64,000 nucleotides of DNA. It comes from Thermoanaerobaculia bacterium. GTDB taxonomy: Bacteria; Acidobacteriota; Thermoanaerobaculia; Gp7-AA8. The notes under the pieces were generated by a model, which was not told the DNA's origin, made no database searches, and saw only the letters and a program-made list of their open reading frames with translations. A program made the translations under genes and the position numbers. Positions 16,718 to 20,611 of the stretch are shown here, piece by piece. Positions within the stretch are counted from its first letter, which is position 1. Every line of letters starts with the position of its first letter. The DNA is taken from contig DATDFB010000057.1 of assembly GCA_036522835.1 (NCBI GenBank), forward strand, positions 3,906-67,905, written 5' to 3'.

Positions 16718-17776
16718 ATGCGAGTCCTGCACCTCGCCGCCGGAAACCGCTGGACCGGAGCCGCCGCGCCGGCGTTCGCCGAGGTGGCGGCGCTGCGCGA
16801 GGCGGGAGTCGATGCGCACTACGCCTACGTCGGCGGCTACAAGCTCGAGCAGAAGCTCGCCCACGTCGGCTTCGCCCACCCCGCGATCGCCAAGGCGCAG
16901 AATCCGCTGTCGTTCCTGCGCACAGCCACGAGGCTCGAGCACCTCATCGACCACCACGGCTTCGACGTCGTGCACGCGCACCTCACCTACGATCACGTGC
17001 TGGCGCGGTTCATCGCCAAGCGGGAGAAGGTGCGGATCGTGCGGACGTTCCACTCCCGGCGGGTGATCCGCGGCGACGTCTTCACGCGGGCGCTCGTCCG
17101 GCGCACCGACGCGATTTGCGTGATCAACGACGCGCTCGCCGAGGCGGCGCCGATCCGCGGCCGTTTCGCGCTCTACACACCGCCGCCGCTCGACACGCGG
17201 CAATTCACGCCCGAGGGGCCGGACTTGCGCGGGGCCTACGGCGTCGAGGGCGATGCGCTGCTCCTCGTCGCCATCGGCAAGCTCGATCCCGCGCGCGGCT
17301 TCGAGGACGTGCTGCGGACGTACGCACTGGTACGGCAGGCCATCGCCACGGCGCGGCTGATGATCATCGGCCACGGCCCGCACCGCCCGGCGCTCGAAGC
17401 GCTGGCGAGCTCGCTGCAAATCGAGCCGATCTGGGCCGGTTATCACGAGGACGATCTCGCCGAGCACTACCGCGCCGCCGACGTGCTGCTCTTCACCGCG
17501 CGCGGCTCCGACGAGGGCCACCGCGCCGTGATCGAGGCGATGGGCTGCGGCGTCGTGCCGGCGACGTATCGCCTCGACGGCATGCCCGCGATCCTCGGCG
17601 AGCTCGGCGCGGAGTCGCTGGCGGCGTCGCCGGCGCCGCAGGCGCTGGCCGAGCGCGTGATCGCCATCGCCCAAGGCGATCTCGCCGCATCGCGCCGCGC
17701 GGCGTTCGCACGGTCGGCGGAGTTTTCGTACGGGAAGGCCGCGGAGCGGCTGATGAAGCTGTACGAGTCGCTCTAA
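16718..17776 (+). CDS. glycosyltransferase family 4 (GT-B)
   Basis: Start refined to MRVLHLAAGNRWTGAA; C-terminal EG.. VIEAMGCGVVPA motif region; upstream 66 residues of track ORF are antisense to Trm112 gene. Confidence 0.8.
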   Translation: MRVLHLAAGNRWTGAAAPAFAEVAALREAGVDAHYAYVGGYKLEQKLAHVGFAHPAIAKAQNPLSFLRTATRLEHLIDHHGFDVVHAHLTYDHVLARFIAKREKVRIVRTFHSRRVIRGDVFTRALVRRTDAICVINDALAEAAPIRGRFALYTPPPLDTRQFTPEGPDLRGAYGVEGDALLLVAIGKLDPARGFEDVLRTYALVRQAIATARLMIIGHGPHRPALEALASSLQIEPIWAGYHEDDLAEHYRAADVLLFTARGSDEGHRAVIEAMGCGVVPATYRLDGMPAILGELGAESLAASPAPQALAERVIAIAQGDLAASRRAAFARSAEFSYGKAAERLMKLYESL

Positions 17777-18396
17777 ATCGTTCGCAGCAGCGCCCGCACC
17801 GGACTGGCATCCCCACCCCGAATCCGCAGCGGCGCCGCGATCAGCTCGTACGCCCCCTCGGCCACGCCGTCGAGCACGAGCCCCTCGAGGTTGGCCATGT
17901 CGTGCTCCGCGAGCGCCTGGTGCGACTCCAGCGCCTTCGACTCGAACGGATCGACCGACGGCGTGTCGATGCCGACGAGGATCACGCCATGCTGGTGCAG
18001 CACGTCGATCACCGCGGGCGAGAGGCTGGCGAAATCGTCGTTCCAGTTGCGCGGATCGGGAAACGTGCCGGTGCGAAACAGCACGCGCGGCGCGGTGATG
18101 GCCTTGCCGGCGATGTGCATCGGGCGGATGCGGTCGCCGCGCTCGACGTTGACGTGCACGACGATGCACTGGCCGATGTAGTAATCGAGCGAGCGCGAGG
18201 CGATGTCGGCGCCGCCGGCGGCGTAATGGCTCGGCGCGTCGGCGTGCGCGCCGGCGTGGAGCGTGGTGCGGACGTCGGAGAGCGTCAGGTGCGCGCCGGC
18301 GTCGATGTCGAGGCTGACGTTGCGCGCGAACGGCGTGTCCCCGGGCCAGACTGCGACGCCCGCGTCGAGCACGGGCGAGATGTCGATGAGCGTCAT
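17773..18396 (-). CDS. cyclase family protein (kynurenine formamidase-like)
   Basis: 207 aa; HxGTHxDAPxH-like motif (HAGAHADAPSHY), PF04199-type fold. Confidence 0.8.
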   Translation of the reverse strand: MTLIDISPVLDAGVAVWPGDTPFARNVSLDIDAGAHLTLSDVRTTLHAGAHADAPSHYAAGGADIASRSLDYYIGQCIVVHVNVERGDRIRPMHIAGKAITAPRVLFRTGTFPDPRNWNDDFASLSPAVIDVLHQHGVILVGIDTPSVDPFESKALESHQALAEHDMANLEGLVLDGVAEGAYELIAAPLRIRGGDASPVRALLRTI

Positions 18397-18402
18397 ATGA
18401 GT

Positions 18403-18479
18403 GTCATTCCGAGCCGCGAAGACGGCGAAGAATCCCGTGCCTGCCGGCAGGGGGTCCCTCGCTCCGCTCGGGATGACAC
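18403..18479. repeat. palindromic repeat element, family 2, copy B
   Basis: gtcattccgagccgcgaagacggcgaagaatccc-loop-gggtccctcgctccgctcgggatgacac; fills gap between 17773..18396 and 18485..19816. Confidence 0.75.
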
Positions 18480-18484
18480 GGCGG

Positions 18485-19816
18485 TCATGCCGAGGCGATC
18501 ACTTTCAACTCGACGAGGATCGGCGTCGGCAGGGAATCGACGCCGACCGTCGTCCGCGTCGGCTGGATCTTTCCGAGCGTCTCCGCGTAGACGCGGTTGA
18601 AGCGCTCGAAGTCGCGCTTCATGTCGGTGAGGTAGACGGTGACGTCGAGAACTTTGTCGAGCGAGCTGCCGGCCTCCTCGAGGATCGCCCTGACGTTCGC
18701 GATCGTCGCGCGCGTCTGCGTCTCGATGTCGGGCGCCGGCACCTCTCCCGTCCCCGGTTTGCGCGGGCCGACGCCGGAGAGGAAGAGGAGGTTGCCGACG
18801 CGGCGCGCGTGCGGGTATGGGCCGACCGGCGGCGGCGCCTTCGGCGTGACGAGCACCTCAGGCGTCTCTTCGCCGGGCGGCGGCGCGGCTGCGGCGAGAA
18901 CGTTGTGCGTCTCCAGTCCCGTGCCGCTCGACTGCGCGAAGGTGATCGGCGCCCCTTCGTCGAACTCCTTCTCCCACTCGATCTCTTTCTGCGGGTTCGG
19001 CGTCAGCTCGACGATGGCGTTGCCGGTGCCCCACACCGGCTGGTAGTCCCACACCTTGCCGTCGTAGCGGTTGTGCTCTCCCATCAGCGCGGCCAGCCAC
19101 CAGATGGCCTTGAAGCCCATGTCGGCGTTCGCTTCGCGGGCGAAGTCGCGCGCGACCTGGGCCACGTCCTCGAGCCGCCCCTCGCCGAGCATCTCCAGGA
19201 TCTTGCGGTTCCACTCGTCGTCCTTCGCCGAGGAGACGCGGTCGTGGGCCGGGTCGATGTCGCCGACTTCGTAGCGGTTGGAGAGGTTCGTGACGACGAC
19301 GACGACGGTTTTCTTGCCGTAGTGGTCGATGGCCGCGCGGCCGGCCATGCCGAGGGCGCGCGTCTCCTCGCGCTCCGCGTAGATGTTGCAGGACACGACG
19401 GAGGCGGGGACGGCGTTGTCCGGATTGAGGAGCTTCAGCGCCACGACGGTGCCGGTGTCGATCGGAAAGCCGTGATAGCTCACCTCCGCCGCCTGCATGC
19501 CGTTCTGTTTGCAGATCGCGCAGTAGAGTTTTCCGAATTCCGGATCGACGCGGAACTCGTAGGGGATCTCGCCGAACTGGTACCAGTTCTGATCGACGAG
19601 GATCCACTTCGGCGCGGGGTCGGTCTGGAAGAGGTGGCCGATGACGGAGAACCACTGCGTGGAGTAGACGAGGATCAGCTCCGCGCCCGACGCGGCGATC
19701 TCGCGGCCGACGGCCTCGTAGCTCGCACGCAGCGACGCCCAGCCGGGGCTCTTCTCCGGCGCGAGCAGGACGTGGGGTTGGCCGGGGACGAGATAAGCCT
19801 TCTGGATCATGGCCAC
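18485..19816 (-). CDS. fusion protein: class III extradiol dioxygenase (LigB/DODA-like) N-domain + RidA (YjgF/TdcF) C-domain
   Basis: N-domain ~300 aa (ILVYSTQWFSVIGH ~ AHW motif region); C-terminal 125 aa PPVGPYPHARRVGNLLFLSGVGP...TRTTVGVDSLP is canonical RidA. Start GTG 19816 or ATG 19810. Confidence 0.65.
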   Translation of the reverse strand: MAMIQKAYLVPGQPHVLLAPEKSPGWASLRASYEAVGREIAASGAELILVYSTQWFSVIGHLFQTDPAPKWILVDQNWYQFGEIPYEFRVDPEFGKLYCAICKQNGMQAAEVSYHGFPIDTGTVVALKLLNPDNAVPASVVSCNIYAEREETRALGMAGRAAIDHYGKKTVVVVVTNLSNRYEVGDIDPAHDRVSSAKDDEWNRKILEMLGEGRLEDVAQVARDFAREANADMGFKAIWWLAALMGEHNRYDGKVWDYQPVWGTGNAIVELTPNPQKEIEWEKEFDEGAPITFAQSSGTGLETHNVLAAAAPPPGEETPEVLVTPKAPPPVGPYPHARRVGNLLFLSGVGPRKPGTGEVPAPDIETQTRATIANVRAILEEAGSSLDKVLDVTVYLTDMKRDFERFNRVYAETLGKIQPTRTTVGVDSLPTPILVELKVIASA

Positions 19817-19817
19817 G

Positions 19818-19925
19818 GAAAATTAGAACGCAGAATGCGAATGCAGAATGAAGAAAACGGAGTCCGTTGGCCAAGGCGCTCCGGTTTTCTCAATTCTGCA
19901 TTCGCATTCTGCGTTCTGAATTTCC
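19818..19925. repeat. palindromic element, family 1, copy 3
   Basis: ggaaaattagaacgcagaatgcgaatgcagaatgaagaaa-loop(with inner palindrome)-tctcaattctgcattcgcattctgcgttctgaatttcc. Confidence 0.8.
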
Positions 19926-19930
19926 TTGAT

Positions 19931-20611
19931 TTAGTGGACGTACGTCTCCCGCTCGACGACGTCTTTCCGCGACTGGATGATCGACGTCGCGAGCAGCGCG
20001 CGCCGGCCGATCTCGTCCCACTGCGCGGTGCGCACGAGGTCCGGTACGGCGAGCGACGAGCCGAGGTTGACGGCGACGCAGCCGGCGTCGAGGTAGGGCT
20101 CGATCATGTCGAGGGCCACGGGGCCGCCGGCGAGCATCTGCACGTCGCGGATGGGGCCGCGGATGGTGCGGATGTAATCGGGGCCGCCGAGGTGCGGTGC
20201 CGGGTAGACCTTGACGATGTCGGCGCCCGCTTCCCAGGCGCGGATGATCTCGGTCGGCGTGGCCGCGCCGGCGATGGAGAGGAGGTCGTTCTCCGTCGCG
20301 TACTCGATGATCTGGTAGTCGGTGTGCGGCGAGACGATCACGTGCGCGCCGGCGCGGCGGGCCAGCGCGGCGTCGTTGGCGCTGCGCACGGTGCCGGCGG
20401 CGATGACTACGTCGGCCGCGGCGTAGCGAGCGGCGAGCTTGGCGATGAGCTCGAAGGCGTCAGGCGTGGTGAGCGTGACCTCGATGATGCGCACGCCGTT
20501 GCGCGCGTACGCGTCCGCCACGGCCTCGGCCGCCTCGGCGGAGTTTTCACGGACGACGCCGATGATCTGCTCGGTGCGGGCTTTTTCGAAAAGTTCGGTG
20601 CGGAGGGACAT
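19931..20611 (-). CDS. eda: KDPG/KHG aldolase (2-dehydro-3-deoxyphosphogluconate / 4-hydroxy-2-oxoglutarate aldolase)
   Basis: 226 aa TIM-barrel aldolase, GVRIIEVTLTTP...IAAGTV... pattern. Confidence 0.82.
   Translation of the reverse strand: MSLRTELFEKARTEQIIGVVRENSAEAAEAVADAYARNGVRIIEVTLTTPDAFELIAKLAARYAAADVVIAAGTVRSANDAALARRAGAHVIVSPHTDYQIIEYATENDLLSIAGAATPTEIIRAWEAGADIVKVYPAPHLGGPDYIRTIRGPIRDVQMLAGGPVALDMIEPYLDAGCVAVNLGSSLAVPDLVRTAQWDEIGRRALLATSIIQSRKDVVERETYVH

Follow-up and report, generated by a model that had tools for sequence, protein, structure and literature searches.

A 2-aminophenol-type dioxygenase alpha subunit fused to a RidA deaminase next to a kynurenine formamidase gene in Thermoanaerobaculia

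The 64-kb stretch of a Thermoanaerobaculia genome analysed here (assembly GCA_036522835.1, contig DATDFB010000057.1, positions 3,906 to 67,905), hereafter the window, carries a gene in which the alpha subunit of an amn-type dioxygenase is joined to the putative deaminase of its pathway, a fusion for which no published account was found. It lies on the minus strand between genes for an Eda-type aldolase and a kynurenine formamidase (KynB). Our overall explanation, to which we assign a probability of about 60 %, is that the alpha-like domain would pair with a separately encoded catalytic subunit, AmnB, and thereby tether the deaminase to it, in a pathway that appears to be fed from tryptophan. 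The three open reading frames (ORFs) and the parts of the fusion are as follows, with coordinates counted on the whole stretch.

19931–20611, minus strand: Eda-type class I aldolase of 226 aa (KHG/KDPG family), at the head of the operon
18485–19816, minus strand: the fusion gene
19001–19816, minus strand: N-terminal AmnA/CnbCa-like alpha domain of the fusion (LigB fold), residues 1–272
18857–19000, minus strand: linker of the fusion, residues 273–320, with the conserved start NPQKEIEWEKEFDEG...GTGLETHNV and then a variable Pro/Ala-rich tether
18485–18856, minus strand: C-terminal RidA (YjgF/UK114) imine/enamine deaminase domain of the fusion, residues 321–443, with the stop codon
17773–18396, minus strand: kynurenine (aryl)formamidase KynB, 207 aa, Pfam PF04199

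The fusion is 443 aa long when read from a GTG codon and 441 aa when read from an ATG two codons downstream. Pfam placed PF02900 (LigB) at residues 14–261 (E 1.9e-19) and PF01042 (RidA) at residues 326–442 (E 1.1e-29) of the single ORF, as the first-pass annotation of this DNA had claimed for a 443-aa polypeptide. Its positions and domain calls for the three genes were likewise confirmed.

Judged by sequence, the N-terminal domain belongs with the non-catalytic (alpha) subunits of 2-aminophenol 1,6-dioxygenase. In phmmer comparisons with solved alpha chains it matched 7txy_A at E 1e-58, 3vsg_A at 4e-52 and 8ihg_B at 2e-50, whereas the beta chains of the same enzymes were matched at about 1e-23 to 1e-19; the corresponding scores were 175–203 bits for alpha chains and 74–85 bits for beta chains. 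These matches bear out the earlier assignment of the relatives to the 2-aminophenol (amn) pathway.

The iron site was then compared with motifs taken from the canonical beta subunits of related loci. The 2-His-1-carboxylate Fe(II) ligands of the catalytic subunit are His13, His62 and Glu251 in CnbCb numbering. In the fusion the first ligand His is replaced by Gly12 (APHPPH in the beta subunits, VPGQPH in the fusion), the second by Gln54 (SPHW, STQW) and the catalytic acid–base His by Asn180 (LSHRH, LSNRY), while a carboxylate is retained at the third ligand, where Glu becomes Asp232 (SEVKAG, NADMGF). All four positions were invariant in the 79 fusions included in the column analysis. The degenerate metal-site motifs 'PG.P' and 'STQW' are shared by the fusion and the solved alpha chains 7txy_A, 3vsg_A and 8ihg_B. 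Having lost two iron ligands and the catalytic His, the domain cannot be a ring-cleaving dioxygenase of the canonical Fe(II) type.

The first-pass annotation had taken the LigB domain for a ring-cleaving enzyme of the AmnB type, in which case one polypeptide would cleave aminophenol and deaminate the product. The Pfam LigB match and a weak NCBIfam HpaD_Fe match (57 bits against a cut-off of 316) speak for this, yet every fusion examined has other residues in place of the catalytic His and of two of the three Fe(II) ligands, the domain scores about 100 bits or more higher with alpha chains than with beta chains (E 1e-58 for the alpha type set against 1e-20 to 1e-23 for the beta type), and in most genomes a separate, intact AmnB stands beside the fusion. 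We consider a catalytic role of this domain very improbable, and the loss of metal-binding residues, which the annotation had itself named as refuting evidence, contradicts its dioxygenase claim.

The linker, flexible and about 50 residues long, is the least conserved part of the protein, with the highest mean column entropy of the three regions, and its variable length accompanies total lengths of 426–502 aa among relatives. The C-terminal domain scored 103.4 bits against PF01042 (cut-off 27.3) and 105.8 bits against TIGR00004, just below the cut-off of 106.25. The Arg of its 'QPTRTT' motif, invariant in the fusion alignments, lines up with the 'FPARSA' Arg of 8v8r, a solved enamine/imine deaminase, and represents the conserved active-site Arg (Arg105 in enterobacterial RidA). 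Its putative assignment as a 2-aminomuconate deaminase draws on the gene context in relatives, described below. An AlphaFold2 model of the fusion, built from a 60-sequence alignment, was too poor to be used, with a mean pLDDT (predicted local distance difference test score) of 59.8 and a pTM (predicted template modelling score) of 0.56.

The distribution of the fusion was assessed by a scan with one genome per species, which gave 354 stretches encoding a relative; the best 80 of the 354 loci were kept, and individual related loci are cited below by L numbers. Both domains were held by all 80 of these best species-level loci, all of them in metagenome-assembled genomes (MAGs) of Thermoanaerobaculia/Acidobacteriota, and by all 120 best database relatives (76–93 % identity). 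The closest relative, L006 (DATELQ010000110.1; about 93 % nucleotide identity), encodes a fusion that is 98 % identical. The suspicion that a sequencing frameshift had joined two genes, raised along with the initial annotation, can thus be set aside. At 50 % clustering, few of the 150 listed representatives matched across the full length. Intact fusions with the same degenerate motifs were found in Bdellovibrionota (L086, N-domain identity 56 %) and Bacteriovoracia (L087 and L088, 62 %) and in a further lineage (L089, 63 %). In a Planctomycetota locus (L171, about 11751–13293) a RidA call of 143 aa follows an uncalled gap of about 1.1 kb; together they are probably the Planctomycetota copy of the fusion.

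Public annotation of the fusion is inconsistent, as the label is 'alpha subunit' at JGI and 'Rid family detoxifying hydrolase' at NCBI. The NCBI calls for L086 (10909–12342), L087 (10911–12278) and L090 (6673–8049) cover the RidA part only (137–215 aa), even though the full LigB-alpha plus RidA frame was verified as intact in L086. Many NCBI records give the AmnB-like beta protein itself the name 'tRNA U-34 5-methylaminomethyl-2-thiouridine biosynthesis protein', apparently an annotation error that has been passed on.

The genes surrounding the fusion in relatives indicate its likely partners. The gene immediately upstream of the fusion encodes a canonical AmnB (297–308 aa, all His/Glu ligands present) in 49 of the 80 species genomes. 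The block runs in the order TodX-type porin, M15 peptidase, luciferase-like monooxygenase (LLM), Asparaginase_II-family protein (AsnII), aldehyde dehydrogenase (Aldedh), AmnB, fusion and often KynB, with a membrane protein of about 400 aa (402 aa) sometimes placed between Aldedh and AmnB. The best NCBIfam match of the Aldedh is 2-hydroxymuconic semialdehyde dehydrogenase (564 bits).

The core of LLM, AsnII, Aldedh, AmnB, fusion and KynB was found in Thermoanaerobaculia, Bdellovibrionota, Bacteriovoracia and Planctomycetota, the Planctomycetota fusion being the probable one noted above. Tryptophan 2,3-dioxygenase adjoins the cluster in Bdellovibrionota and is the first gene of the same one-directional string in the Planctomycetota MAG, and genes resembling 4-oxalocrotonate decarboxylase and 2-oxopent-4-enoate hydratase (DmpH/DmpE-like) are close by in Bacteriovoracia. 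AmnB itself is highly conserved: one 90 % cluster of 1469 members takes in all Thermoanaerobaculia AmnB, and identity across phyla is about 70 %. Conserved across several phyla, the cluster is a core chromosomal pathway tied to tryptophan and kynurenine and not a xenobiotic island. Kynureninase, kynurenine 3-monooxygenase (KMO), cupin-type 3-hydroxyanthranilate dioxygenase (HAO) and 2-amino-3-carboxymuconate-6-semialdehyde decarboxylase (ACMSD) were all absent from the loci examined.

Two observations on individual clusters are added here. A gene of the short-chain dehydrogenase/reductase family lies directly upstream of the LLM gene in L086 (5444–6196) and L171 (3225–3983) and is a candidate redox partner. 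In L074 (Acidobacteria MAG BP6.bin107) AsnII and Aldedh genes lie upstream of the fusion at about 8–10 kb; this locus, in which no LLM was detected and nothing passed the filters as AmnB, may be a degraded or divergent copy.

The explanation that we favour runs as follows. The alpha-like domain would pair with the highly conserved catalytic AmnB, encoded separately and, in the present genome, outside the window, and would thereby hold the RidA deaminase at the ring-cleaving enzyme. An alpha2beta2 organization has been described for 2-aminophenol-type dioxygenases (PMC10470539). The tethered RidA would be the hydrolytic deaminase of the ring-fission pathway, with 2-aminomuconate as the predicted substrate. 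The pathway appears to be fed from tryptophan via kynurenine, as suggested by KynB in the operon and by tryptophan 2,3-dioxygenase in the clusters of other phyla.

Several points weigh against this explanation. The deaminase of the textbook amn pathway works two steps downstream of the dioxygenase, following the dehydrogenase, so that a fusion serving to channel the intermediate is not self-evident. The RidA domain resembles a generic RidA (PH0854, its best solved match, 1e-30) more than 2-aminomuconate deaminase (6izh, 9.5e-23). Homologues of AmnB, the semialdehyde dehydrogenase and asparaginase II were all absent from the window. The aldolase was never present in the AmnB-containing clusters of other phyla, so its functional link may be merely positional. 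Finally, the alpha–beta interface is beyond the quality of the single-chain AlphaFold2 model.

With regard to the order of steps, two variants may be considered. RidA might act directly on the unstable 2-aminomuconic semialdehyde, in its enamine/imine form, to yield 2-hydroxymuconic semialdehyde. Direct action on the product of the dioxygenase would explain the fusion to a dioxygenase subunit; it also fits the best family match of the dehydrogenase, and it would prevent cyclisation to picolinate. Alternatively, the complex of alpha, beta and RidA might also recruit the dehydrogenase. The channeling of a reactive enamine that the first-pass annotation proposed is conjectural; dioxygenase and deaminase do not catalyse consecutive steps in the textbook pathway.

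The gene content of the conserved cluster would also be compatible with a tryptophan catabolic route, so far undescribed, that passes through 2-aminophenol and not through anthranilate or 3-hydroxyanthranilate. We advance this route tentatively and regard it as rather doubtful, as it is built by chemical reasoning from the genes present. Tryptophan 2,3-dioxygenase and KynB would first produce kynurenine. The LLM would insert oxygen at the aryl ketone of kynurenine in a Baeyer–Villiger reaction, giving a 2-aminophenyl ester of aspartate, which could rearrange by an O-to-N acyl shift to N4-(2-hydroxyphenyl)asparagine. The asparaginase-II-like enzyme would then release aspartate and 2-aminophenol, whose ring would be opened by AmnB bound to the alpha-like domain. 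The tethered RidA and the semialdehyde dehydrogenase would lead on to 4-oxalocrotonate, preventing cyclisation to picolinate. If true, this route gives each enzyme of the conserved cluster a role without kynureninase, KMO, HAO or ACMSD.

The three-gene arrangement of the window is shared by 23 of the 80 species genomes, in which the order is aldolase, fusion and kynB, with the aldolase directly upstream of the fusion. In L006 the TAG stop codon of the aldolase gene abuts the ATG of the fusion and the stop codon of the fusion overlaps the start of kynB (ATGA), so the underlying unit is a tightly packed three-gene operon. In the larger clade of this aldolase type a divergently transcribed small GTPase gene lies upstream of the aldolase, so that the operon is self-contained.

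KynB is a true kynurenine formamidase by its family matches, its solved homologues and its metal motif, which upholds the earlier reading of this gene as a cyclase of that kind. It scored 221.7 bits against the arylformamidase model TIGR03035, marginally below the cut-off of 223.05, and matched the solved kynurenine formamidases 4cob over the full length (E 2.7e-50) and 4cog (E 2e-48). The metal motif HxGxHxDxPxH is retained as HAGAHADAPSH. The aldolase matched Pfam PF01081 (E 4e-36) and TIGR01182 (eda) at 164.5 bits, above the cut-off of 156.05, and its best solved match was the Thermotoga maritima KDPG aldolase 1wa3 (E 1e-31). The Lys of its 'VKVYP' motif, which we take to be the Schiff-base Lys, aligns with the Lys of 'LKLFP' in chains derived from T. 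maritima. A role as the pathway's terminal 4-hydroxy-2-oxo-acid aldolase is possible for it, and we hold this assignment with low confidence.

The description of the locus as a compact amino-aromatic catabolic module, given by the first-pass annotation, stands in part. Its link to kynurenine is supported by the clusters of other phyla with tryptophan 2,3-dioxygenase, KynB, AmnB and a dehydrogenase of the muconic-semialdehyde type. With no catalytic beta subunit in the window, the three genes cannot be a self-sufficient ring-cleavage module.

The ancestral cluster has been broken in the lineage of the window. The fusion lacks AmnB and its upstream partners as neighbours in the 23 aldolase-type species genomes, in L003–L005 and in the window, and in those 23 genomes no AmnB lies within 10 kb of it. 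The window-type order is Ser/Thr kinase (in some loci), aldolase, fusion and KynB, followed by GT4, Trm112, Wzy_C and an extracytoplasmic function (ECF) sigma factor; these four downstream genes are the same in the window type and in the AmnB-adjacent type. The upstream half of the ancestral block is kept elsewhere in the window, at 30.4–37.3 kb, as prolyl-tRNA synthetase (ProRS), TodX-type porin, M15 peptidase and the following gene.

36166–37332, plus strand: luciferase-like (LLM) monooxygenase, orthologue of the first gene of the cluster, 83 % identical to the gene of L002

This LLM gene lies about 16 kb from the fusion, is inverted relative to it, and shares its upstream neighbours (ProRS, TodX-type porin, M15 peptidase) with L002. 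It is followed by a sulfatase/LtaS-like gene in place of AsnII–Aldedh–AmnB. In a tblastn search of the window at E values up to 10, no remnant of AsnII, Aldedh, the 402-aa membrane protein or AmnB was found, and a pseudogenised block was rejected on that basis. The genes kynA and kynU were likewise absent from the window. Between the porin and the peptidase, which are adjacent in L002, the window carries an ORF (33540–35519, plus strand, 659 aa) whose codon bias is that of a gene and which has no match in Pfam.

The alpha-like domain shows no sign of decay after this separation. The ratio of nonsynonymous to synonymous substitution rates (dN/dS) of the domain was 0.02–0.09 in aldolase-type pairs compared with 0.03–0.08 in AmnB-adjacent pairs. 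A single alignment column was conserved in the AmnB-adjacent set yet variable in the aldolase-type set, and there were no fixed differences. Strong purifying selection without lineage-specific change indicates that the domain is not a relic.

A metagenome scan with AmnB returned 80 loci, 71 of them with sufficient flank for context counts. A fusion was adjacent in 39 of the 71 and lacking in 32. With the exception of L137, the fusion-less AmnB genes, which come from soil metagenomes, group together as one clade when AmnB sequences are placed in a tree, and their G+C content matches that of the two aldolase-type groups. Some of these loci retain LLM–AsnII–Aldedh upstream (for example L122, L128 and L168), and three share an NfeD–SPFH anchor with the aldolase-type locus L044. 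The unlinked AmnB loci are tied only weakly to the lineage of the window by their G+C content and by shared repeat families. From these patterns we infer that AmnB and the fusion probably became unlinked in one lineage and that both were kept. Given the purifying selection on the alpha-like domain and the separate clade of fusion-less AmnB, the beta subunit is most likely encoded elsewhere in the genome.

A third arrangement was observed in L122, L128, L168 and L108, where LLM–AsnII–Aldedh–AmnB is intact and is followed by a BNR-repeat protein and GalU, with no fusion. This suggests a stepwise break-up of the cluster, in which the fusion and kynB split off first and AmnB was later separated from the upstream genes.

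Loss of the catalytic subunit in the aldolase-type lineages, with a fusion that works without AmnB, would be the alternative to relocation. The fusion would then be a general RidA imine deaminase with the alpha-like domain as a scaffold or oligomerisation module, or it would have acquired a new non-oxygenase function together with the Eda aldolase and KynB. Such a role would account directly for the absence of AmnB from the window and from the 10 kb around the fusion in 23 of the 80 species genomes, for a self-contained operon flanked by unrelated genes (the divergent small GTPase and a glycosyltransferase) and for a RidA domain that retains the archetypal RidA signature. The absence of any relaxation of the alpha-like domain after unlinking is hard to square with the loss of its sole known function, and AmnB genes 88–93 % identical to those of the fused-type clusters are abundant in fusion-less contexts, with matching G+C content and in one clade, which points to relocation rather than loss. 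On balance, a role independent of the beta subunit appears unlikely.

Palindromic repeats occupy both gaps of the operon in the window, as the first-pass annotation had observed in describing the three genes as separated by repeat elements.

19813–19928: palindromic repeat of family 1, with 45-nt arms and the core GAACGCAGAATGCGAATGCAGAAT, between the aldolase and the fusion
18401–18483: palindromic repeat of family 2, GTGTCATTCCGAGC...GCTCGGGATGACAC, between the fusion and kynB

The family-1 element fills the 114-nt gap and has a predicted RNA fold of -66.8 kcal/mol (z -10.4); a second copy at 16329–16429 is 98 % identical and a related element lies at 4723–4804. The family-2 element, in a gap of 88 nt, has a fold of -46.5 kcal/mol (z -3.1), with further copies at 2324–2403 and 45108–45214 and a half copy at 37751–37787. 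Shuffled sequence gave about zero matches to either core, compared with two to four copies per family in the real window. Both hairpins are recent insertions of mobile elements into the gaps of the operon, resembling repetitive extragenic palindromes (REP) or miniature inverted-repeat transposable elements (MITE), because their presence at the same junctions differs among L003–L006 and the window. L006 lacks both elements; L003 holds the first only, its fusion and kynB overlapping as in L006, and L004 and L005 hold the second only.

These insertions at both ends of the gene, together with the broken cluster, in which LLM is 16 kb off and inverted and four genes are missing, might suggest that the fusion is a relic of a broken amn-like operon, or else two genes joined by sequencing error. 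We consider this extremely improbable. The frame is intact and the G+C content at third codon positions (GC3) is 0.92, like that of the neighbouring genes (0.92–0.93 in all three operon genes). Against close relatives, dN/dS is 0.04–0.09 for the alpha-like domain with the linker and 0.05–0.26 for RidA, and the same architecture occurs in thousands of independent assemblies from several phyla.

The window as a whole is unusually rich in REP/MITE-like elements. The half copy of family 2 (GTCATCCCGAGCGCAGCGAGGGATCC) lies within the coding frame of the sulfatase/LtaS-like membrane protein (about 37.4–39.17 kb, plus strand), where it is translated as 'VSSRAQRGIPRD' and looks like an in-frame insertion of the repeat into a gene. 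Two further G+C-rich palindromic families, with the core pair GGAGTGCGGCGGCCATGCCGCCGC/GGTAGGGGCGCACGGCGTGCGCCC, are dispersed over the window, the first at 5908–5975, 39169–39207, 48434–48494, 50642–50680 and 51916–51983 and the second at 24612–24646, 32147–32181 and 53559–53593. A tandem array at 56456–56683 holds about eight copies of a 21-nt unit, CTTCGATCGGAATCGCGCGCT, with 84 % matches. It starts in the last bases of the ORF 56160–56471 and ends just before an HD-domain gene (56724–57749); that ORF and another at 56068–56373 are short, overlapping and on opposite strands. No Rfam family matched in a search of the window, repeats included. A promoter scan of 17.5–23.2 kb found none, and terminator-like sites were at background level.

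Other features of the window are recorded briefly. Next to the operon, the segments 20621–22939 (minus strand), 22890–23822 (plus strand) and 23819–26720 (plus strand) encode a Ser/Thr kinase with tetratricopeptide repeats, the divergent small GTPase, a methyltransferase and bacillithiol-type genes (BshC- and BshB/PIG-L-like). In related loci the small GTPase homologues match Ras/Arf; only the subclade of the window, L049 and L062 have the kinase between the GTPase and the aldolase. The gene at 40453–41577 (minus strand) contains four to six tandem repeats of 129–132 nt at the DNA level, has only a weak Pfam SH3_14 match and appears to encode a repetitive-domain protein. A large ORF at 46916–50188 (plus strand, 1090 aa) also has gene-like codon bias and no Pfam match. 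ARAGORN called a 94-nt tRNA-Cys at 17605–17698 (plus strand) inside the GT4 glycosyltransferase gene (16520–17776), probably a false positive.

The identification of the fusion corrects a tempting misannotation, as the protein is not a bifunctional dioxygenase–deaminase and is instead a catalytically dead subunit that carries a deaminase. The product of the ring-cleaving enzyme is notoriously unstable. By attaching a later enzyme of the pathway to a scaffold subunit, the fusion offers a case for studying how bacteria handle reactive enamine and aldehyde intermediates. It also flags a strongly conserved cluster that links tryptophan 2,3-dioxygenase and KynB to aminophenol-type ring cleavage via two enzymes of uncharacterised role. 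If the tryptophan route proposed above is true, it matters for soil nitrogen and carbon cycling by the abundant and mostly uncultured Acidobacteriota and by predatory Bdellovibrionota. In the full-text literature no description was found of an AmnA–RidA fusion, of this cluster or of a conversion of kynurenine to aminophenol, and a survey of the Rid family does not mention the fusion or the cluster.

Compared with known systems, the fusion is closest in its N-terminal half to AmnA and CnbCa (3VSG/3VSH chain A, 8IHG chain B, 7TXY chain A). Homology extends across the whole domain (residues 5–271), at moderate identity to the solved alpha chains, and the same ligands are lost (G-x-P-H for H-x-P-H, STQW for SPHW). 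In most related genomes the fusion, like these subunits, directly follows the catalytic beta gene. The known alpha subunits are stand-alone proteins of about 270–280 aa, whereas the fusion adds a conserved extension, a linker and a C-terminal RidA, and in the window the beta gene is neither adjacent nor within the 64 kb.

In its C-terminal half the fusion resembles the AmnD/NbaF-type deaminase (6IZH) and RidA (TdcF/YjgF; PH0854, 2DYY), with which it has in common the conserved Arg, the N-terminal Gly-Pro-Tyr motif and a RidA domain length of about 120 residues. As with AmnD/NbaF, the fusion of relatives is associated in the genome with an aminophenol dioxygenase and a muconic semialdehyde dehydrogenase. 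The known deaminases are free-standing trimers, whereas here RidA is fused to the alpha subunit of a dioxygenase.

At the level of gene clusters, the relatives encode AmnB, an AmnA-type subunit, an AmnC-like dehydrogenase and a deaminase, as do the amn, nba and cnb clusters and the actinobacterial ARO microcompartment locus (PMC10470539), and one relative cluster shares 4-oxalocrotonate decarboxylase and hydratase with them. The cluster described here differs in adding LLM, an asparaginase-II-like protein, KynB and sometimes tryptophan 2,3-dioxygenase, and in having neither nitroarene/hydroxylaminobenzene genes nor microcompartment shell genes; the paper on the ARO microcompartment mentions no fusion (PMC10470539). 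With the kynA/kynB/kynU operon it shares a genuine KynB, which adjoins the fusion, and tryptophan 2,3-dioxygenase in the homologous Bdellovibrionota and Planctomycetota clusters. It differs from that operon in having no kynureninase in the examined loci and in that the ring-cleaving enzyme is of the LigB type, AmnAB.

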